From Candidatus Moraniibacteriota bacterium (GTDB taxonomy: Bacteria; Patescibacteriota; Minisyncoccia; Moranbacterales; UBA2206), in contig CAVZKT010000002.1 of the NCBI GenBank assembly GCA_963775955.1, forward strand, positions 228,944-292,943: 64,000 nucleotides of DNA. Direction: 5' to 3'. The position numbers and the translations under genes were made by a program. Below are positions 25,556 to 45,120 of the stretch, one piece after another. Numbering within the stretch: the stretch's first letter is position 1; every line of letters starts with the position of its first letter. Under the pieces are notes generated by a model. That model did not search any database and was not told the DNA's origin. It was given only the letters and a program-made list of their open reading frames with translations.

Positions 25556-26127
25556 ATTCCGAAGCTCGCAAGAGCGAAGGATGGCTAGTACAGAAATGTA
25601 CAAAAACCCTCCTACGTCCGCCTCGGCGGACTTCGGAAGGGTAAAGAGTCTATTCAAACAAAGAATTTATTTTCTTTAAATAAGGTTTATTGATCCGTCT
25701 TCTCCGCCTTCGGCGGATTCGGCGGGATCTAATAAATCTATCGAAAAAAATTATATTTTTTTCGAGATTTATTGAGAGTTTGATCCTAGCTCAGGATGAA
25801 CGCTGGCGGCGTGGATAAGGCATGCAAGTCGAGAGGGTTTAGACCCTCGGCAAACGGGTTAGTAATACATAGGAACTTCCCTGAAGTCGTGAATAATCCG
25901 GAGAAATCCGGAATAATACACGATATGCTCTACGGAGTAAAGATTTATCGCTTCAGGAGGGCCTGTGTCCTATCAGCTTGTTGGTAGTGTAAAGGACTAC
26001 CAAGGCTATGACGGGTAGGGGGTGTGAGAGCACGGCCCCCAACATTGGGACTGAGACACTGCCCAAACTCCTACGGGAGGCTGCAGTCGAGAATATTCGT
26101 CAATGGGCGAAAGCCTGATGGAGCGAC

Positions 26128-26166
<39 letters not shown>

Positions 26167-26858
26167 TTTCTGAGGGAAGAATTTCGTGACGGTACCGCAG
26201 GAATAAGAGGTTACTAACTCTGTGCCAGCAGTAGCGGTAATACAGAGACCTCAAGCGTTATCCGGATTTATTGGGCGTAAAGAGCATGTAGGCGGATATA
26301 TTAGTCAGATGTCAAATCTTCGAGCTCAACTCGAAAACTGCATTTGAAACGGTATGTCTAGAGAGAGTGAGAGATCGATGGAACATATGGTGTAGCAGTG
26401 AAATGCGTTGATATCATATGGAACACCAAAGGCGAAGGCATTCGATTGGCACTCTTCTGACGCTGAGATGCGAAAGCGTGGGTAGCGAATGGGATTAGAT
26501 ACCCCAGTAGTCCACGCCGTAAACGATGCATACTAGGTATTAGGAGAATCGACCCTCCTAGTGTCGTAGCTAACGCGTTAAGTATGCCGCCTGGGAAGTA
26601 CGAGCGCAAGCTTAAAACTCAAAGGAATAGACGGGGATCCGCACAAGTGGTGGAGCATGTGGTTTAATTCGACGGTAAGCGAGAAACCTCACCAGGGCTT
26701 GAAACTTAGCTGCATTGTGCAGAAATGCACAAGCCTTCGAGGGTGCTAAGCAGGCGCTGCACGGTTGTCGTCAGCTCGTGTCGTAAGATGTTCTGTTAAG
26801 TCAGGAAACGAGCGCAACCCCTATCGTGTGTTACATTGTGTCACACGAGACTGCCCAG

Positions 26859-27048
26859 AACTTTGCACAAGAGTGCAAAGTAAATTCCAAATTACAAATC
26901 ACAAATCCCAAACAAATTCAAAATTCTAAAATACAAATTTCAAAACTTTTAAAAAATTGTTTTGGACATTTGAATTTTGGTCATTGGTGCTTGTTTGGAA
27001 TTTGGTGCTTAGGATTTGGTGCTTACTTTGTCACTCGTGGACAAAGTT
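26859..27048 (+). other. 190-nt AT-rich expansion replacing the helix-40 loop of the 16S
   Basis: Sits between ACTGCCCAG and CTGGGAGGAAGGTGGGG, where E. coli has CCAGTGATAAACTGG. It begins and ends with similar hairpins (ACTTTGCAC/GTGCAAAGT and CTTTGTC/GACAAAG). The centre folds as a long A/T helix. Confidence 0.8.
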
Positions 27049-27279
27049 CTGGGAGGAAGGTGGGGATGACGTCAAATCAGCGTGGCCCTTTGACGCCCTG
27101 GGCAACACACGTGCTACAATGGTAAGAACAAAGGGTTGCCAAGCCGTAAGGCGGAGCTAATCCCAAAAATCTGATCTCAGTTCGGATTGAGGTCTGCAAC
27201 TCGACCTCATGAAGCCGGAATCACTAGTAATCGTAGATCAGAATGCTACGGTGAATACGTTCTCGGATCTTGTACTCAC

Positions 27280-28151
27280 AATAAAAGCGCTGGGCAGTTG
27301 TAAATTCTAAGGAGTTTAAATCTCCTCTCCCGATTTCGTCATCGGGATGTAGCTGAAAGGTAGTCGTTATCCGCGAGGATAATGGTGAAGGATCTGGAAG
27401 CAAAAAATAGTCCGACAAAATCCGCCAGTTGGCGGAGCGCGCATCGACCTTCGGAAGGGTGGTGAGCGAAGGGAAGACGCAAGAATAAGCGCAGTCGGAA
27501 TGTTTGGAAAAGAGTTTATAATGACCCCAGGAGATCTTATGCCGTTCTGATTATGTGTTATAATATAATCAGGTAATGAAACTTACGCGGCGTAAGAAGT
27601 CAGCTGAATCGTAGTATCCCGAGTTCTCGGGAGAAGGATTCACTCAGTGCATATGGAATTAAATCCAAATTATATCGTTGGTCTGGTTGATGGAGAAGGA
27701 AGTTTTACAGCTTATGTAAAAAATCCGGATTCAACCAAAAAAGTTCAAAGGCGGACAAAAGTTGAGCCAAGGTTTTTTCTGAAACTTATCGAGAAAGATA
27801 AAAAAATTCTTGATGAGCTTAAAAAATTCTTCGGATGCGGCAATGTTTATTTTCAAAAAGATAAGCGCGCCAATCATCAAAATTGTTATCGTTATGAAGT
27901 AGCCAACCGCAGTGATTTGGAAAAAATAATAGTTCCATTTTTCAAAAGGAATTCTTTGCAGTTACGCTCAAAGAAAAGTGACTTTGAAATGTTTTGTAAG
28001 ATTCTCAAGATGGTTCAAAAAAAGGAACATCTGAAAGAATCGGGATTAAGAAAAATATATAATCTCAAGCAAAAGATGCATTAGAGCTCGTCGTGTGCGG
28101 GAAATCCGCAGGCACGATGGGAACATCAATTCGTAGTTTTACGAAAATATT
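27280..28151 (+). mobile_element. 872-nt intervening sequence in the 16S (E. coli ~1397-1400 region) carrying a homing endonuclease gene
   Basis: Interrupts the universal GYACACACCGCCCGT: TTGTACTCAC | insertion | CGCCCGTCACACC. Contains structured GC-rich RNA flanks and the LAGLIDADG ORF. Confidence 0.85.
27653..28084 (+). CDS. LAGLIDADG homing endonuclease (single-motif type)
   Basis: NPNYIVGLVDGEGSF is the LAGLIDADG motif. 143-145 aa, the size of the homodimeric I-CreI-like class. Located inside the rRNA insertion. Confidence 0.85.
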   Translation: MELNPNYIVGLVDGEGSFTAYVKNPDSTKKVQRRTKVEPRFFLKLIEKDKKILDELKKFFGCGNVYFQKDKRANHQNCYRYEVANRSDLEKIIVPFFKRNSLQLRSKKSDFEMFCKILKMVQKKEHLKESGLRKIYNLKQKMH

Positions 28152-38206: not shown

Positions 38207-38602
38207 ATGGATATTTATATCGAACTTGAAACTGGCAAGAAGACGAAGTCAGAGATTGAAAAAATAATGCTCGATGTTGCTGAAAACTTGGAAGAACTAT
38301 TTACGCTTTACTATGTGATTTGTGAAGAAAGTAATTTCGCTGAAGCAGTTGTTGAAAGAATTTCAGAACAAATTGCGCCGATTGAAAAATGGGTTGAAAT
38401 TTACGAACGGATTCCGAGAAAAAAAGAATTCTTTATAATTAAAGAAATCTTTTTCAAGAAGATGGCAGGTTCTCCTGGAGAAATAAGAAAAGCCGGGTGG
38501 GTAAAATCTCATCCGGCTTTTAAATTTTCACATCAAAAATTAAGAAAAAGTTCATTTGGTATCAATACTTGCGATATTTCTAGTTCCCGACTGAATGTCT
38601 AA
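38207..38602 (+). CDS. Hypothetical protein
   Basis: 131-aa ORF. Its 3' end overlaps the convergent amidotransferase gene by about 50 nt. Confidence 0.4.
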   Translation: MDIYIELETGKKTKSEIEKIMLDVAENLEELFTLYYVICEESNFAEAVVERISEQIAPIEKWVEIYERIPRKKEFFIIKEIFFKKMAGSPGEIRKAGWVKSHPAFKFSHQKLRKSSFGINTCDISSSRLNV

Positions 38603-39358
38603 TCTTAATAATTCGTGGTTATTGAATTGTTTCCAACGGACACCTTTTGGAGCTATTTTTTCTGATGAAACTATATCAGAATTTGAATTTTCGGTGTGTC
38701 CTATATAAAGCGTATAGTACTCAAGCATTTTTTTTCTTTTAACTAACTCGCTTTTTTCATTTATCTCACGAAGTGCCCACGCATTTTTACCGTCTGTCAA
38801 TAAAAAATTTAATGCAGTGTAATCAAAATTTTTCTTAACAAAAGAAACTGCCTTCAGGATACCTTTTTGAATGGAATTTGATGTTTGTTTCTTATCTTTA
38901 ATGTTATTAATACATTGTAAAATGTAAACAAAGAACCTTTCTGAATCAGTTTCCCCCTTAATTAGATTTTCAAATTCATCAGTTAAGGGAAGTCGCTTAC
39001 TGTTAAAAATAGTGCCATTTTGACAAAAAGAAAAATTTTTTAAAACAAAAGGATGAGAGTTGAAAAATTTATTTTTGCCTGTCGACGCTTTACGTAAATG
39101 ACCAATAACAATATTTGAATCTAAATCCCTTATTTCTTCAATGATTTTTTTATAAGCTTTACTTTTTATTGCGCTAGAGCCCTCCTTTCTAAAAAGAATT
39201 ATTCTTCTGCCCTTATAAACAACCACACCCCAACCATCCTCGTGTCCAGACTGCGATCCTTTAGGAACACTTCCTTTTTTAGAAAGTAATCGAAAATCAG
39301 CCAAAACCTCAGAGTTGACTTTTTTATTAAAATTATTTACCAATATCATTCTACACAT
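38552..39358 (-). CDS. Class II (Ntn-type, YafJ/EgtC-like) glutamine amidotransferase
   Basis: N-terminal MCR nucleophile (Cys2), HEDGWGVV, and GHLRKAST...NSHPF. Confidence 0.7.
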   Translation of the reverse strand: MCRMILVNNFNKKVNSEVLADFRLLSKKGSVPKGSQSGHEDGWGVVVYKGRRIILFRKEGSSAIKSKAYKKIIEEIRDLDSNIVIGHLRKASTGKNKFFNSHPFVLKNFSFCQNGTIFNSKRLPLTDEFENLIKGETDSERFFVYILQCINNIKDKKQTSNSIQKGILKAVSFVKKNFDYTALNFLLTDGKNAWALREINEKSELVKRKKMLEYYTLYIGHTENSNSDIVSSEKIAPKGVRWKQFNNHELLRLDIQSGTRNIASIDTK

Positions 39359-39430
39359 ATGTTAAAATTATCATAAAATAAAAATTTTTAAAAATTGTGG
39401 GAAGCGGAGTTTTATCCGCTTCCCACTCAA

Positions 39431-40192
39431 TCATGCTTCCAAGGCTTCTTTGCAAAGAGAATGACATCTTTCTGCCCACATCACTACTTCATCCAAATTC
39501 TCAGTTGAGCCGAACATTCTGAACTCGATTGTGCCATGAACAGAGATGCGCACAATGTGCCAACAACTTCTGGGATCATTTACAAAGTTTTTTTCAGTCG
39601 CCTCACGATAGAAATCTGTGAAATTTTTATAACGAGGCGGGTAAAAATCGGGAGCTACTACTCTGTAGATATCCAGGCGCCTGCCGTTGGATTTGTCACC
39701 AAGTTTGCAGAGCAAATCAACTTTGTCTATGACCGAGTTGTACACCTTTATAGCAGTTTCATGGTCGGGCATACCAATGTGAATATGAATACCCGTTACC
39801 TGACATGCTGCAAGCAATACTTCTTTTGACATTTTTTCAGTTATACGCTGATATCTTCCGCTGGGATCGGGATATACGTCGAGGGGCATATCATCAGGTG
39901 CTACTTCAAGAAACAGACGTTCAAAACCAATTTCACTTTCAGCTTTTTTAATTTCCTCCTCATTCTTCAATAATTCGATTTTTACGTTTTTCACTTCGGT
40001 CGGGCCTATCCTATCTTCAAGTTGACAAGCAGAAAGTTCAAAACCGAACCGTCCATTTATTCCTATCCTTGTGAGAACCTCTGGTGAAATAGGAGATATC
40101 TTTCCTTTTTTTACCAAAAAGCATTCTCGTTCGACACCGACCAGTAAGGCACCGTCTTTTCTGAAATTAAACTTCCTGAGAAAGTCTTGCAT
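39431..40192 (-). CDS. Glutamate-cysteine-ligase family 2 (YbdK/EgtA-like) carboxylate-amine ligase
   Basis: GVERECFLV, FELSACQLE and TGIHIHIGMPD blocks. GGAGG RBS 8 nt upstream. Confidence 0.65.
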   Translation of the reverse strand: MQDFLRKFNFRKDGALLVGVERECFLVKKGKISPISPEVLTRIGINGRFGFELSACQLEDRIGPTEVKNVKIELLKNEEEIKKAESEIGFERLFLEVAPDDMPLDVYPDPSGRYQRITEKMSKEVLLAACQVTGIHIHIGMPDHETAIKVYNSVIDKVDLLCKLGDKSNGRRLDIYRVVAPDFYPPRYKNFTDFYREATEKNFVNDPRSCWHIVRISVHGTIEFRMFGSTENLDEVVMWAERCHSLCKEALEA

Positions 40193-40235
40193 TTTAAACC
40201 TCCTTGGAAAATTTTTAGGGAACTAAAAGGAATTT

Positions 40236-40535
40236 AAAAACTCCTCATCCTCACCGCACAATTAAAAATTGTGCGAAAGGACGAAGAGTTTTTGTTTTAC
40301 TTCGTGATGCCACCTTTCTTTTGGAAACAAAAAATCTGCCGTGGCAGACCAGTTTCCACTCATCGACTCAGGCTTCTGATAAAATCAGAACGATATCGAT
40401 TATCCTATGATTACGGAGGATGCCGGATTTCCACTATTGCAGAAACCGCCTTGTCCGAAGCTTTATCGGACTAATCCAGACCCAGCCCTCCGAACATTCG
40501 GAGGATCCAGACTTAGGCTTTGTTATTTTTAAAGT
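40236..40535 (-). promoter_or_regulatory. T-box riboswitch leader (antiterminator/terminator resolved; Stem I/specifier not resolved)
   Basis: Minus-strand RNA: GAAAGG-UGGCAUC-ACGAAG-loop-CUUCGU-CCUUUC (40318-40275) is the canonical antiterminator with a 7-nt UGGN bulge. GGUGGCAUCACG matches the consensus GGUGGNACCRCG. The competing terminator is AACUCUUCGUCCU / AGGAUGAGGAGUU followed by UUUUU (40290-40236). The Stem III-like hairpin GGAAAC...GUUUCC lies just upstream. Confidence 0.75.
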
Positions 40536-40541
40536 ATTTGT

Positions 40542-40569
40542 AGTATAGCAGACACAAAAAAGTTGTCAA
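40542..40569 (-). promoter_or_regulatory. Promoter for the T-box operon (TTGACA-16-TATACT on minus strand)
   Basis: Plus-strand AGTATA at 40542-40547 and TGTCAA at 40564-40569. Confidence 0.6.
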
Positions 40570-40687: not shown

Positions 40688-41437
40688 ATGATTTGGGCAC
40701 CATATCTTGGAGCGCGCATTCCGAATATGAAGGGCGTGGGAAAAATCTACAAGGCATTTTCAAATGGTAATTTTACATATTCATCTCACGCTGCTATTTT
40801 TGTTGGTTTTACGCCAGGCAATCCGCAATTGAGAGAAACATTTATAAATCCAAAATTCGGAAAAATATTTAAAATAAAAACAGACGGAGATTATATTGGC
40901 CCCGGCATTGATCATGTAGTACTGGATGGTAAAAATATAATCGATGGTTTTAAGCGTAAGGGGTATGTGACAATCGGAACAGCTGCAATGGATTGGTTTG
41001 ATCCAGAATCAGAATCTGGACAGACATTGATGGCTGACTTTGATCATTTTCTATATTCCAAAACTGATTTTTTAAGGCAAAAAGAATATGTTATTCAGAA
41101 AATTACTGAATGCAACGATAATCCAATATTTGTATTTATGAATATAGGTGAAACGCATGTTCCTTATTATTTTAAAGGGGCACCCTGGTCTAAGCACGAC
41201 AATCCCTGTGTGCCTTTTGGAAGCGATAATTCGCTTGAAAAGAGTAGTTTCAGACAGGGGAAATGCCTCGAGTTTATTGATAATAATATAAAAGAAATAC
41301 TGGATTTGTTTAAGGATGATAATATAATAATTTGTTCTGATCATGGTGATTGCTGGGGTGAAGATGGATTGTGGGAGCACGCAATTCATCATGAAAAAAC
41401 CGTAACTGTTCCGTTGCTCTTTAAGCTGGAGAAATAA
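40688..41437 (+). CDS. Alkaline-phosphatase-superfamily (sulfatase/phosphodiesterase-like) protein, apparently lacking the usual N-terminal metal/nucleophile block
   Basis: C-terminal SDHGDCWGEDGLWEHAIHH resembles the SDHG..GE.G...H motif of the superfamily. The frame is open for about 20 codons upstream with no start codon. Confidence 0.45.
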   Translation: MIWAPYLGARIPNMKGVGKIYKAFSNGNFTYSSHAAIFVGFTPGNPQLRETFINPKFGKIFKIKTDGDYIGPGIDHVVLDGKNIIDGFKRKGYVTIGTAAMDWFDPESESGQTLMADFDHFLYSKTDFLRQKEYVIQKITECNDNPIFVFMNIGETHVPYYFKGAPWSKHDNPCVPFGSDNSLEKSSFRQGKCLEFIDNNIKEILDLFKDDNIIICSDHGDCWGEDGLWEHAIHHEKTVTVPLLFKLEK

Positions 41438-41647
41438 GCATTATTATAGTAATAAACACTTCGTCAATGGCTGATTTGCTCCCTTGACTTTCGATTTTTT
41501 AAGTGTATAATTAACAAGATTTACGCATATTAGCTATGTGGAAGTCAGATGTTCTTTGACAAAAATCCTGTTTTTGACTTATGGCTAATAATGCTATATA
41601 GTTGAAATATGTTTGAAAACACTATTATGCAAAATAAAGGGGGTAAT

Positions 41648-43517
41648 ATGGAAATGAAGGAAAAAAAACAAGACGAGTTTGAGAAGTACAAGCTGGAGGT
41701 GGCTGAATCCGTAAGCGCGGTTCAGAAAAAAATCAGCGAGGAAAAGGATAGTCGCGAACTTGTTGACTTTGATAGCTATCCATCAGAAAAGCTAACGGCG
41801 GAGGTAGCTGAGGTTGTGAGAGAGTCTATCGGTGTCCAAGATGTTGGAGAAATAGGACTGTCAGTTCCACCAGCTCACATATCCGGCGATTTTGCTTTGG
41901 AGGTTTTTGATTTAGCAAAAAAGCTGGGGGAAAAACCAAATGTGCTGGCAAAGAAAATTGCTGATAGCATAAATGGGCGAGAAATGGAGTTGGTCAAGGA
42001 TGCTTCTGTGGCAGGAGCTTTTGTAAATGTGGAAACACGCAAGGAGACCCTCTACCGAGATATTCTTGCAAAAGTTCTTAAGCTCGGAGAGCGCTATGGC
42101 GAAAGTGATATCAATGCTGGCAAAGTGGCAGTCATTGATTATTCGGCTCCGAACATAGCAAAGCCTATTGGAGTCGGTCACTTAAGATCTACAATCATTG
42201 GGCAAGCTCTTGCTAATCTTTACCATGAAACTGGCTACAGCGTTATCAAGGACAATCATCTTGGTGATTGGGGCACGCAATTTGGATCACTCATTTACGC
42301 CTATAAAGAATGGGGTGATGAGAAGAAAATAGCGGAGAACCCAATTGGAGAGCTTAAGGATCTCTATGTTAAGTTTCATGCATTTTCTAAAGAGCACCCA
42401 GAGGTTAAAGATAGTGCTCGCGAGTTGTTTACGCGACTCGAGAAAAAGGATCCCGAGCTGGTAGCTCTTTGGAAGCGTTTTAGGGATTTAAGTCTCAAAG
42501 ACTTTGATCGTGTCTACAAGCAATTGGGAATCGAATTCGACACTAATATCGGTGAGAGTTATTTCACTGAACAAGCTGACAAACTGGTGGGTGAGTGTAT
42601 GACAAAGGGTTTGTGCAGAAAGGATGAAGCGTCGGAGGCTGTTGTTGTTGACCAAATGGGAGAAATTCCGTCTTTTCTATTAAGAAAGCAGGATGATTCG
42701 AGTCTGTATTTGTCGAGGGATTTAGCCACGCTTCAGTTTAGGGTCAAAGCCTTCAAGCCCGATGCTATTTTGTATGTGGTGGGCAATGAGCAGGATTTAA
42801 ACTTCAAACAACTGTTTGAATTTAGTAAGCGCGCCGAATATCTTCCAGACGGCGTGGAAACGAAACACATCGGATTTGGAATGGTCTTGAGAGACGGCAA
42901 GAAGATGTCTACCAGAAAGGGGACACTCATTGAGTTAGAAGACCTGATTGCGCAGTCTGTAGAAAAATCAAAGGAGATATTGCTCCAAAAAAATCCAGAC
43001 GCTGATCCGCAAGAATTGGAAAAAGTGGCTGAGATTGTTGGTGTCGGAGCAATCATTTACAATGATTTGCGCCAGTCGAGAGTAAAGAATATCTCTTTCG
43101 ATTGGGACAGGATGCTTGATTTGGAAGGTGGAAGCGCGGTTTATTCTCCAGTACTCATATGTTCGAATCAATTCAATTCTCAGAAAGCTAACTGAGACTT
43201 ATGGCGAAATTGATTTGAGCACTTTGGAGAAAGGAGAGATTTCTTTCACGAGCAAGAGTGAATTTGATCTTGCGAAGAAGTTAATGATGTTTCCTGCAAT
43301 CGTTGTTAAGTCGCAGGAAACTGATTCTCCTCATCATCTCTGTGTGTATTTGGAGGAATTGGCTCAGTTTTTCAACAGCTTCTACAATGAAGTATCGCTT
43401 CTCAGGACCAAAGATGCAAAGCTTCGTAATTCAAGAGTGGCTTTAAGCAAAGGTGTGGCCTTGGTGATCAAAAAAGGCCTATCTTTACTGAGTATCAAGG
43501 TTCCGGAGAAGATGTAG
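41648..43517 (+). CDS. argS: Arginine--tRNA ligase, frame broken near 43141-43146
   Basis: Class I: SAPNIAKPIGVGHLRSTIIG (HIGH variant) and KMSTRKG (KMSKS). The C-terminal DALR domain continues in track ORF 43116-43517. Removing one T in GTTTATTCTCC gives GGSAVYLQYSYVRINSIL. ATG 41648 follows AAAGGGGG. Confidence 0.85.
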
Positions 43518-43986: not shown

Positions 43987-45120
43987 ATGAAAAACAGGCT
44001 AATTTCCAAAGAGAGGTTAGCTAAGGCACTAGCCATAAAAGATCTCTCGGATCCAGCGAATGGAGTTCATGCGATTAACTTAGTAGTCAGTAAAATTTTT
44101 GACTATCTAACAAAAAAAGCAGGGTGGCCAAAACCGGAAATAAGAAGAGCGAGTCCTATTTCATCAGTCAAAAATGATTTTGATCGGCTGTATTTCCCAC
44201 CAGATAATCTTACTCGTTTGCCTCGCTACACGCGGTATCTTGATGAAAAAACCATATTGAGGACGCACACAACCGCCATGATACCTAATATACTCATAGA
44301 GATACGAGAAAAGGGCTTGATGGATTTCTCTGTTCTCTGTCCTGGCATATGTTATCGCAGGGATGTGGTTGACAGTAGGCATACGGGAGAAGCCTCATCA
44401 AATGGATATTTGGAGGATTAAAAAAGGCACACCAAGGCTTGAACGCAAAGCCCTCATTGATTTGATTGAGTTGGTGCTGGAAGCTGTAATTCCAGGAGCA
44501 AAATATAGGGCCAACGAGGTAAATCATCCCTACACAATAAATGGACTTGAGGTTGAGGTCCTTGTGAAGGGATATTGGCTTGAATTGCTGGAATGTGGCG
44601 AAGCGCACCCAAGGCTCCTCTCTGAGGCTGGACTTGATCCGAAAGAATACTCCGGACTGGCGATGGGTGTTGGACTTGACCGATCGGCCATGTTGTTGAA
44701 GGACATTGAGGACATAAGAATACTGCGTTCGGAAGATCCTCGTATCAAGCAACAGATGACCAATCTTAGTCATTATAAGGCAGTTTCAAAATATCCGCCC
44801 GTACGCCAAGATCTCTCCGTTTCAGTTTTGCAAGAAACAAATGAGGAAGATGTATGCGAAATAATCAAAGATGCTCTTGGTGACAATTCAGATGTTGTTG
44901 AGGAAATTACCATAATGTCGGAACAAATTACGACCGTCTTCCTGCTAAAGCAATTGAAAGGTTGGGCATAAGACCAGGACAAAAAAACATGCTGATAAGA
45001 GTTATTTTAAGATCGCATGAAAGATCCCTCACTCATAAGGAGGCCAATGAAATGAGGGACAATATTTATAGAACAATTAACCAGAGCGGTACCGAAGGTT
45101 ATCTTGCTGGCATTAAATAA
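43987..45120 (+). CDS. Single-chain PheS-like class IIc aaRS paralogue with C-terminal FDX-ACB-like domain, two frame breaks
   Basis: ILRTHTTAMIP, motif 2-like YRRDVVDSRHTGEPHQMDIW (after repair) and motif 3-like GLAMGVGLDRSAML. The C-terminus KYPPVRQDLSVSV...YDRLPAKAIERLGIRPGQKNMLIRVILRSHERSLTHKEANEMRDNIY resembles the ferredoxin-fold anticodon-binding domain. Breaks lie near 44388-44393 and 44924-44928. Strong RBS AAAGGAGG. Confidence 0.7.

Follow-up and report, generated by a model that had tools for sequence, protein, structure and literature searches.

A predicted tryptophan-specific T-box leader with a short Stem I upstream of a minimal carboxylate-amine ligase gene in Patescibacteria

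We analyzed a 64,000-nt stretch of a Candidatus Moraniibacteriota genome (GCA_963775955.1, contig CAVZKT010000002.1, positions 228,944 to 292,943 of the forward strand), hereafter the window, in which a leader of ~340 nt on the minus strand lies upstream of a gene for a small carboxylate-amine ligase, followed by a gene for a class II glutamine amidotransferase (GATase)-like protein. A T-box had been proposed for this leader in an earlier reading of the DNA (the original prediction). The parts of the unit, from promoter to second gene, are as follows.

40542..40569 (minus strand): sigma-70-type promoter, TTGACA at 40569-40564, a 16-nt spacer and a TG-extended TATACT at 40547-40542, 11/12 in a consensus scan
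40473..40513 (minus strand): short Stem I, lower helix 40513-40505 with 40481-40473, upper hairpin 40504-40487
40486-40482 (minus strand): internal (specifier) loop GCUGG on the 3' side of Stem I, adjoining the lower helix
40481..40484 (minus strand): predicted specifier UGG, a Trp codon, at 40484-40482, with the conserved purine G at 40481 (columns 50-53 of alignment A2, described below)
40453..40471 (minus strand): GUCCGA-UAAAGCU-UCGGAC, a hairpin that lies between Stem I and Stem II and is variable and optional
40426..40447 (minus strand): Stem II, GGUUUC 40447-40442 with GAAAUC 40431-40426, and an invariant UGC...GUG cap
40402..40425 (minus strand): Stem IIA/B pseudoknot, helix IIA being CGG 40425-40423 with CCG 40416-40414
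40421-40417 with 40406-40402 (minus strand): helix IIB of the pseudoknot, AUCCU with AGGAU
40416-40411 (minus strand): F-box-like CCGUAA (F-box role from PMC7583486)
40362..40400 (minus strand): extra helix, AUCGAU 40400-40395 with GUCGAU 40367-40362, enclosing a variable hairpin at 40390-40374
40321..40361 (minus strand): Stem III with flanking purines, GGAAAC 40357-40352 with GUUUCC 40328-40323 and an inner hairpin, from the minimum free energy fold
40361-40357 and 40322-40321 (minus strand): flanks of Stem III, GAGUG and AA, fitting the RRRxG-Stem III-AA motif (PMC7583486)
40275..40318 (minus strand): antiterminator, outer helix A1 being GAAAGG 40318-40313 with CCUUUC 40280-40275
40305-40300 with 40286-40281 (minus strand): helix A2 of the antiterminator, ACGAAG, a 13-nt loop and CUUCGU
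40312-40306 (minus strand): T-box bulge UGGCAUC, 7 nt, between A1 and A2
40236..40293 (minus strand): intrinsic terminator, core hairpin 40288-40241 followed by U5 at 40240-40236
40205-40199 (minus strand): Shine-Dalgarno (SD) sequence AAGGAGG
40192..39431, or 39431..40205 with the SD (minus strand): ligase coding sequence from the ATG at 40192, 253 aa, a minimal YbdK/GCS2-type carboxylate-amine ligase
39397..39426 (minus strand): terminator-like hairpin with a 12-bp stem (-24.2 kcal/mol, z = -8.3), directly behind the ligase stop codon
38552..39358 (minus strand): class II (Ntn) GATase-like protein, 268 aa, YafJ/EgtC-like, with a Met-Cys N-terminus

The promoter, the antiterminator, the terminator, the SD and the ligase start codon were all identified where the original prediction had placed them, and transcription would presumably start downstream of the TTGACA/TATACT promoter. 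The antiterminator (GAAAGG, UGGCAUC, and ACGAAG on the 5' side, CUUCGU and CCUUUC on the 3' side) folds at -10.7 kcal/mol, and the 13-bp terminator first described, with its UUUUU, is the outer part of a hairpin of 22-27 bp at -35 kcal/mol (z = -10, with 0 of 200 shuffles as stable). Because the 5' strand of the terminator is the 3' strand of the antiterminator, the 2 structures are mutually exclusive, as had been claimed. The SD is unpaired and lies 31 nt downstream of the terminator region, and the leader as a whole is far more structured than shuffled sequence (z = -7). The T-box sequence GGUGGCAUCACG has 1 mismatch to the consensus GGUGGNACCRCG, also as first reported, and the identical variant was found in 1 related leader (L074).

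The window Stem I folds as drawn and is ~41 nt long. The repeats that had been taken for competing elements in this part of the leader are present, but they belong to defined helices: both GUCUGGAU copies are the 2 strands of the G.U-rich lower Stem I helix, GGAUCCUCCG and UUCGGAGG make up the upper Stem I hairpin, and GGCAUCCUCCG is the conserved IIA/B pseudoknot with the F-box-like CCGUAA. The likeness of GGCAUCCUCCG to Stem I is peculiar to this genome, since in others the Stem I helix shows free covariation. In Stem I of most leaders, including the window (40482-40504, minus strand), the GG of the specifier could instead pair, in a shifted register, with the CC at the start of the upper helix; the specifier may be partly sequestered in the free RNA.

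Related leaders were compared in 2 sets, 47 genomic and 120 metagenomic, the genomic sample consisting of 80 ligase loci with 1 genome per species, essentially all of them Patescibacteria metagenome-assembled genomes. The T-box core GGUGG[C/U]ACC[A/G]CG was located 116-240 nt (occasionally up to ~530 nt) upstream of the ligase in ~45 of the 80 loci. A profile covering the leader's 5' half found exactly 1 copy per locus in 47 of the 80 and 1 copy in the window; in these 47 loci the leader was always upstream of the ligase and on the same strand, and all 46 core matches in ~0.5 Mb of genomic loci were likewise upstream of the ligase. The order of parts across the family is short Stem I, optional hairpin, Stem II, IIA/IIB pseudoknot, extra helix, Stem III, and antiterminator, with a Stem I of 34-55 nt (median 41, 33 leaders) whose lower helix spans 6-11 bp and whose upper hairpin has 4-10 bp.

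Alignment A2 holds 33 leaders with explicit structure, Stem III and the antiterminator having been parsed separately and not in a single alignment. The 34 base pairs of the 5' half were standard pairs in 94.8% of cells, compared with 35-55% when the partners were slid by 1-3 columns, and compensatory changes were identified in 26 of the 34 (7/9 in the lower and 4/5 in the upper Stem I helix, 6/6 in Stem II, 4/5 in IIB, and 5/6 in the extra helix). The covariation score was 0.565 vs ~0.10-0.13 in the slid controls, and 0 of 500 shuffles reached any observed measure. Helix IIA and CCGUAA were invariant across the alignment; the optional hairpin between Stem I and Stem II differed in sequence and length in most leaders and was absent in 3 (L006, L014, and L072). 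The antiterminator helices A1 and A2 were present in 45 of 45 related leaders and covaried, enclosing the bulges UGGCACC (30 leaders), UGGUACC (13), UGGUAUC (1), and UGGCAUC (1). A terminator hairpin overlapping the 3' strand of the antiterminator and followed directly by at least 4 U was identified in 43 of the 45, with a median of -28.8 kcal/mol and 20 bp. Further, a metagenome scan with a pattern taken from Stem II/IIA-B only (20 fixed bases), which recovers 25 of 48 known leaders, found at least 120 further leaders. The RRRxG-Stem III-AA purine motif is present in the window leader, for which alone it is reported, this variable region aligning poorly across the family.

The original prediction had called this T-box canonical, a textbook case, and had set a scan with the Rfam model RF00230 as its test. 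At the gathering score of 93 bits, RF00230 reported no T-box in the window. Under permissive settings it matched 40475..40274 at 35.6 bits (E 2.5e-6 for the leader and 2.9e-4 for the whole window), the sole T-box-like match in 64 kb; the discriminator half, Stem II/IIA-B and Stem III aligned, 86 Stem I model positions collapsed to 10 nt, and the variable hairpin at 40453..40471 was misplaced as a Stem I remnant. The score is low because Stem I is truncated to ~41 nt and has no elbow-binding distal platform. None of 20 related leaders examined reached the gathering score either, so standard annotation overlooks the whole group. When 32 related leaders, the window excluded, were made into a profile, its sole match in the window was 40511..40255 at E 2.2e-40, E-values from profiles of related sequences overstating independence. 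The covariance model alone could not settle whether this is a T-box.

The description as canonical did not hold. [quoted passage not shown] The base of Stem I has no evident tandem G.A (K-turn) motif, only a 5' flank, AAAUCC, that is conserved and the junction GGAUGG, and the canonical GAA/AGUA S-turn was not found in Stem II, where the invariant UGC...GUG stands in its place. Judged by its sequence features, the leader is a T-box-type tRNA-sensing transcription attenuator of a non-canonical, short form.

Firmicutes transcriptional T-boxes, such as those of B. subtilis tyrS and glyQS, have in common with this class the specifier and purine on the 3' side of the Stem I loop, the Stem III purines, the 7-nt UGGN bulge between A1 and A2, the mutually exclusive terminator with its U-tract, and a Stem II/IIA-B domain with an F-box-like CCGUAA. 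Their Stem I, however, measures ~90-100 nt and carries an AG bulge, a distal loop, and an IDTM that binds the tRNA elbow, whereas that of the window class measures ~41 nt and has none of these. The window class also differs in having no recognisable K-turn or S-turn, in its Patescibacteria host, and in the extra covarying helix between IIA/B and Stem III (40362..40400 in the window), which is absent from the standard T-box description. Actinobacterial ileS T-boxes (M. tuberculosis, N. farcinica; TBDB class II) have, as here, a naturally truncated Stem I (short or 'ultrashort') without IDTM together with a domain of Stem II and IIA/B pseudoknot, which these RNAs require for holding the codon-anticodon duplex (PMC7583486). 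They act on translation by sequestering the SD and read an Ile codon (AUC), whereas the window class has a strong terminator, a Trp or Ser specifier, and many targets.

The architecture found here has so far been described for translational T-boxes, and the IDTM is said to be required in T-boxes that act on transcription (PMC7583486), which would favor SD sequestration and control of translation initiation, as in the actinobacterial ileS leaders, in the window as well. We consider such a mode of action very unlikely, since the competitor of the antiterminator is a GC-rich hairpin of 22-27 bp directly before U5, an arrangement kept in 43 of the 45 relatives, and the SD stands unpaired downstream of it. 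By all sequence criteria, the class would act on transcription.

On the 3' side of the Stem I loop there are always 5 bases, N-N-U-G-G; the next base, an invariant G, pairs with an invariant U to close the lower helix. UGG and this G were invariant in the 33 parsed leaders. Among the at least 120 metagenomic leaders, 107 had UGG, 7 had UCG at the same loop position, 5 had insufficient upstream sequence, and 1 was unclear. With UGG and a purine at the canonical specifier position, the leader is therefore predicted to read tRNA-Trp (anticodon CCA). The N of UGGN was only C (31) or U (14) in 45 leaders, which fits a G73 partner (C-G or U.G) and not A73, and the earlier proposal that UGGC implies a tRNA with G73 is supported. 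Of 33 tRNA genes found in the 80 loci, 18 were tRNA-Trp(CCA), all of them with G73, including those beside UGGU leaders, and they lay either close upstream of the leader, in divergent orientation, or immediately downstream of the pair of ligase and partner gene. The tryptophanyl-tRNA synthetase gene (TrpRS; TIGR00233, 260 bits) was identified in 27 of the 80 loci. Taken together, 4 independent lines (the discriminator base, the tRNA genes, TrpRS, and the metagenome scan) indicate that the specifier reads Trp.

The 7 leaders with UCG (L094, L100, L113, L136, L138, L162, and L167) have the specifier loop GUUCG followed by GG, always with a UGGC bulge. They precede genes for SerA-like phosphoglycerate dehydrogenases, and the tRNA-Ser genes examined from the Candidate Phyla Radiation (CPR) have G73. 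This sister subgroup, which we read as a Ser-specific short-Stem-I T-box, serves as an internal positive control that fixes the specifier frame and the rule.

Other triplets of the same loop were also considered, namely GGG (Gly), which is invariant too, as UGG is followed by G, and UUG or CUG (Leu), which is what NUG spells in most leaders. Bacterial tRNA-Gly has U73 and tRNA-Leu has A73, and both misfit UGGC, the majority bulge; NUG is AUG in L014 and several metagenomic leaders, GGG is followed by a pyrimidine and not by a conserved purine, the UCG/SerA subgroup fixes the frame, and the gene context is Trp throughout. We give these triplets practically no credence.

Glu or Gln had been the favored reading of the original prediction, in which Trp was among the listed G73 families. 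A T-box sensing a Glu, Gln, Asp, or Asn tRNA would match an EgtA/EgtC-like gamma-glutamyl chemistry, and it is in keeping with the G73 implied by UGGC, with the GCS2 fold of the ligase, and with EgtC as the best, though weak, match of the GATase. Among the leaders compared, however, no Glu, Gln, Asp, or Asn codon (GAA, GAG, CAA, CAG, GAC, AAC) was conserved at the specifier position, where UGG and G are invariant, and synteny is with tRNA-Trp and TrpRS and not with Glu or Gln genes. Membership in EgtA/EgtC failed at the curated cutoffs: the GATase scored 53 bits against the EgtC model (TIGR03442; cutoff 218.65) and is weakly EgtC-like, and the gshA/YbdK models scored far under theirs. Further, the same leaders precede TrpB, TrpE, and TrpRS, and only 2 of 80 genomes have the window-type GATase as partner. 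Sensing of one of these 4 tRNAs is thus extremely unlikely, and we read the specifier as Trp.

The genes downstream of the metagenomic UGG leaders were the ligase (18), TrpB (10; TIGR00263, 567 bits), a GNAT-like gene followed by AstE (9), TrpRS (6), TrpE-like (6), and TrpD-like (3) genes, the contigs with TrpB or TrpE possibly coming from other phyla. No T-box before trpS was identified in the 80 genome loci, in which all 46 core matches are ligase leaders; such leaders were found in metagenomic contigs. As TrpB, TrpE/G/D-like genes, and TrpRS are also preceded by this T-box class, we assign the ligase to a Trp regulon. Trp T-boxes are known from rtpA (anti-TRAP) of B. subtilis and, besides it, from trpS, the trp operon, and TrpX/TnaT-type transporters, in which a UGG specifier senses uncharged tRNA-Trp and Trp supply is restored, and rtpA is a precedent for a T-box target that is neither an aminoacyl-tRNA synthetase (aaRS) nor a biosynthetic enzyme. 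In a set of metagenomic loci (L181, L185, and L192; also L107, L110, L157, L183, L184, and L189), a UGG T-box is followed by TrpRS and an amino-acid racemase (TIGR00035, 166 bits) or by TrpB and TrpRS. These gene orders suggest that salvage of indole, and possibly of D-Trp, is under the same control.

A relic, that is, a degenerate T-box or a plain constitutive attenuator or terminator in which tRNA sensing has been lost, would also account for the sub-threshold Rfam score, the missing distal Stem I, the off-consensus base in the window bulge, and the 33 of 80 ligase loci that have no leader. Compensatory changes in 6 helices across very divergent genomes, however, indicate purifying selection on the structure, the specifier and the UGGN bulge are invariant with N only C or U, the specifier class matches gene function perfectly, and the metagenomic scan added its at least 120 instances. 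Loss of sensing is accordingly a highly improbable explanation.

We searched for the identity of the ligase by profile and by structure. The protein matched Pfam PF04107 (GCS2) at 37.3 bits vs a cutoff of 21, and also PF12224 (Amidoligase_2). Members of this superfamily phosphorylate a carboxylate, usually the gamma-carboxylate of Glu, and join it to an amine, and they carry a GhExE signature (PMC2588565), which in the window ligase is G18-V-E-R-E22 (GVERE); HxHxG and R..G.xExR are likewise invariant in the family alignment. With an AlphaFold2 model (pLDDT 92.8, pTM 0.91), the best Foldseek match was YbdK (1r8g; E 7.7e-11, TM 0.74, 17% identity), followed by plant gamma-glutamylcysteine ligase (2gwc) and then glutamine synthetases. 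The protein scored below every NCBIfam curated cutoff (best TIGR02050, 55.7 bits vs 176.4), and its profile found nothing at E <= 0.01 among PDB sequences. Its 610 homologues, of ~253 aa, come from Patescibacteria/CPR lineages wherever the source is named. From its motifs and model, the protein is a predicted GCS2/YbdK-fold carboxylate-amine ligase, to which we assign no substrate, and the claim that the T-box controls a ligase of this kind, and not an aaRS, is upheld.

YbdK/GCS2 ligases (1r8g, 1tt4), EgtA, and plant gamma-glutamylcysteine ligase have their fold and catalytic motifs in common with the window ligase, which is ~100 residues shorter than the YbdK/GCS2 ligases and whose Trp regulon context argues against a gamma-Glu-Cys/thiol role. 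Synthesis of Cys or glutathione was dropped as a candidate function, the specifier and the discriminator both being wrong for it, and a GatB-like reaction on tRNA-Trp was dropped because no carboxylate precursor of Trp exists.

The original prediction had treated the ligase and the class II GATase as 1 controlled unit. The window GATase matched PF13230 (GATase_4) at 76.9 bits vs a cutoff of 23, and PDB entry 1te5 at E 5.5e-12. A gene of this type follows the ligase in 2 of the 80 genomes (L060 and L072) and in 4 metagenomic contigs, and the GATase was rejected as an obligatory partner. No EgtB-, EgtD-, or EgtE-type gene recurred in the 80 loci, and the annotated neighbors in the window are a GNAT, a Fic protein, an STM4013-family hydrolase, arginyl-tRNA synthetase (ArgRS), and a PheRS-like gene. 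The slot beside the ligase is usually taken by other amide-cleaving enzymes, as follows.

49/80 loci: AstE/AspA-family deacylase
11/80 loci: GGACT/AIG2 gamma-glutamylcyclotransferase (GGCT)
10/80 loci: M20 ArgE/DapE deacylase, just upstream
3/80 loci: class I GATase/Peptidase_C26

A GC-rich hairpin with a T-run right after the ligase stop codon was identified in most of 54 ligase-partner junctions, with a median spacer of 65 nt. The counterpart in the window (39397-39426) could be a terminator or an RNA-stability element within the gene pair. With such a hairpin after it, the ligase is the cistron that the T-box clearly controls; expression of the partner may depend on partial readthrough or on a promoter of its own.

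Many of the T-box-less ligase loci are ordered M20, GNAT, ligase (L022, L024, L025, L030, L031, L042, L048, L049, and L066). GNAT-ligase fusions were found in L025 (445 aa), L049 (467 aa), and P0084 (434 aa), and some metagenomic contigs have a divergent GNAT in the place of the ligase before AstE, under a UGG T-box.

We hold it to be very probable that the leader is a tRNA-Trp-specific, transcription-attenuating T-box of a reduced, Patescibacteria-type class and that it drives a ligase of the Trp regulon with a proposed role in N-acylation and deacylation. Sequence and comparison show how the RNA is built, which specifier it carries, that terminator and antiterminator are alternatives, and which genes go with it, and from these we infer tRNA binding, readthrough, substrate, and physiological role along the following lines. 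The short Stem I would present UGG and G to the CCA anticodon of tRNA-Trp, and the Stem II/IIA-B pseudoknot domain would probably buttress this short duplex, by analogy with the actinobacterial short-Stem-I T-boxes. If the tRNA is uncharged, its G73-C-C-A end would pair with the UGGC bulge and stabilize the weak antiterminator against the much stronger terminator, so that RNA polymerase would read into the ligase gene; with a charged tRNA, the terminator would form. The product would be a carboxylate-amine ligase that depends on ATP, working beside interchangeable amide-cleaving enzymes. Ligase and partner would then form a module of N-acylation (probably gamma-glutamylation) and deacylation that raises L-Trp for TrpRS through capture or salvage of Trp or of a precursor. 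Such a module is proposed because of the Trp regulon context, the scavenging life of Patescibacteria, and the consistent company of acylating and deacylating enzymes. Patescibacteria are without amino-acid biosynthesis and depend on scavenging (PMC11665869).

Several points weigh against this interpretation. For the RNA, the RF00230 score is well under gathering (35.6 vs 93), neither the K-turn nor the canonical Stem II S-turn was identified, the window bulge is UGGCAUC and not UGGNACC, with 1 off-consensus base (ACC to AUC), and transcriptional T-boxes generally require the IDTM according to a 2020 review (PMC7583486). The window holds only tRNA-Lys, the G73/CCA match having been seen in relatives and not in its own tRNA-Trp, the leader is missing from 33 of the 80 ligase loci, and the strong hairpin after the ligase makes T-box control of the GATase uncertain. 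For the enzymes, it is not obvious what a Trp-starved cell would gain from acylating an amine at the expense of ATP, and an amide that is first made and then hydrolysed amounts to a futile cycle if no step comes between (trapping, stereo-inversion, or transport).

A regulatory or PafA-/GatB-like modification role is a serious rival to salvage, although we judge it rather unlikely. The ligase would modify a protein or tRNA-linked substrate when tRNA-Trp is uncharged, as an anti-TRAP-like regulator, and the partner hydrolases would reverse the mark. The superfamily includes PafA, which tags proteins, and GatB/GatE, which act on aminoacyl-tRNA (PMC2588565), GGACT-type enzymes act on gamma-glutamyl-amines, the synteny with tRNA-Trp and TrpRS is tight, and the regulator gene rtpA is a precedent for a Trp T-box target of this kind (PMC2494555). 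No candidate tag or target gene was conserved nearby in the 80 loci, however, the other genes under the T-box class are mostly metabolic (TrpB, TrpE, SerA-like), and the partners are typical small-molecule deacylases.

The salvage role is itself put forward tentatively: a large, hitherto uncatalogued class of IDTM-less, transcription-terminating T-boxes, linked with a ligase, partners, and GNAT substitutes that serve auxotrophic Patescibacteria as an unrecognised ATP-driven route of Trp capture or salvage, is a possibility that we rate below even chances. As possible chemistry, Trp, D-Trp, or a precursor might be transiently gamma-glutamylated or N-acylated. Ligase/hydrolase pairs are known from PuuA/PuuD, EgtA/EgtC, the gamma-glutamyl cycle (GCL/GGCT), and LysX/LysK, and in Geobacillus a GNAT, a racemase, and an M20 enzyme convert D- to L-amino acids. 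The window-type loci resemble these systems in that an N-acylating enzyme, using ATP or acyl-CoA, stands beside a second enzyme that takes the acyl or gamma-glutamyl group off again, with partner families of the same kinds; they differ in that no intermediate-modifying enzyme is consistently present and in the Trp-specific control, which is new.

T-box surveys cover Firmicutes, Actinobacteria, Chloroflexi, Deinococcus-Thermus, and a few Proteobacteria (PMC2494555), and the short-Stem-I model of TBDB was run only on Actinobacteria and on class I model hits (PMC7778990). In open-access full texts and bioRxiv, we found no T-box or natural riboswitch regulon in CPR/Patescibacteria, and in the open-access literature no link between a T-box and a YbdK-type/carboxylate-amine ligase. 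T-boxes, Trp T-boxes, and short-Stem-I T-boxes are known; what appears to be new is an IDTM-less, terminator-coupled class and a new target family. As far as the searchable literature shows, this would be the first described natural riboswitch regulon in Patescibacteria, a whole lineage that Rfam and TBDB-style searches miss, given that no related leader passed the gathering score. A family that combines a truncated Stem I with an intrinsic terminator tests the kinetic argument that transcriptional T-boxes need elbow contact, and, if true, an IDTM-less terminating class contradicts the view of the IDTM as essential for co-transcriptional tRNA capture. The regulon would also bear on how auxotrophic Patescibacteria behave under tryptophan limitation, and it offers a ready-made handle for conditional gene expression in these bacteria, as called for by a 2024 perspective (PMC11665869). 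Further, the specifier gives a tryptophan anchor to >600 uncharacterised ligases and their deacylase partners, the biochemistry of which is directly testable.

Beside trpS and tRNA-Trp, 12 loci, including L001, L002, L012, L020 (e.g. L020:4850-5998, minus strand), L033, L037, L051, and L061, carry a fusion of a type II chorismate mutase with an S-adenosylmethionine-dependent methyltransferase (CM-MT). The fusion is reminiscent of prephenate-dependent carboxy-SAM synthesis (CmoA). An unannotated protein of ~340 aa (c11) lies between TrpRS and the T-box in 3 loci (L021:1618-2628, L041:218-1300, and L074:1490-2506); it had GPSG and GT.G motifs, no PDB match, and a sub-threshold match to indoleamine 2,3-dioxygenase (PF01231, 18.6 bits vs 26), from which no conclusion is drawn. 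It may be a Trp- or indole-binding protein. Another unannotated neighbor (c8) had no significant family or PDB match, and tblastn of the window for TrpRS, AstE, GGCT, M20, and CM-MT found none of them.

Divergent from the leader promoter, a 249-aa sulfatase-like hydrolase of the STM4013/SEN3800 family is encoded at 40688-41437 (plus strand; 106 bits vs a cutoff of 250); nothing evident ties it to the T-box unit. At 25768-27331 (plus strand), a complete 16S rRNA gene (1279.8 bits) was identified; no 23S or 5S gene was reported in the 36 kb downstream or the 25 kb upstream of it, and the rRNA genes appear to be unlinked. The ArgRS gene at 41609-43517 (plus strand) is split: its catalytic part ends at 43195 (model position ~451/569), and the DALR anticodon-binding domain (PF05746, 104.7 bits) lies in an overlapping open reading frame in another frame at 43116-43517. 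A genuinely split gene, a frameshift, or an error in the assembly could each account for this. The gene that follows, at 43987-44971 (plus strand), encodes a PheRS-alpha-like class II core (PF01409), matches FDX-ACB weakly, and is likewise split, into overlapping open reading frames at 43987-44421 and 44363-44971, and 2 successive frame-broken aaRS genes suggest assembly indel errors or pseudogenes.

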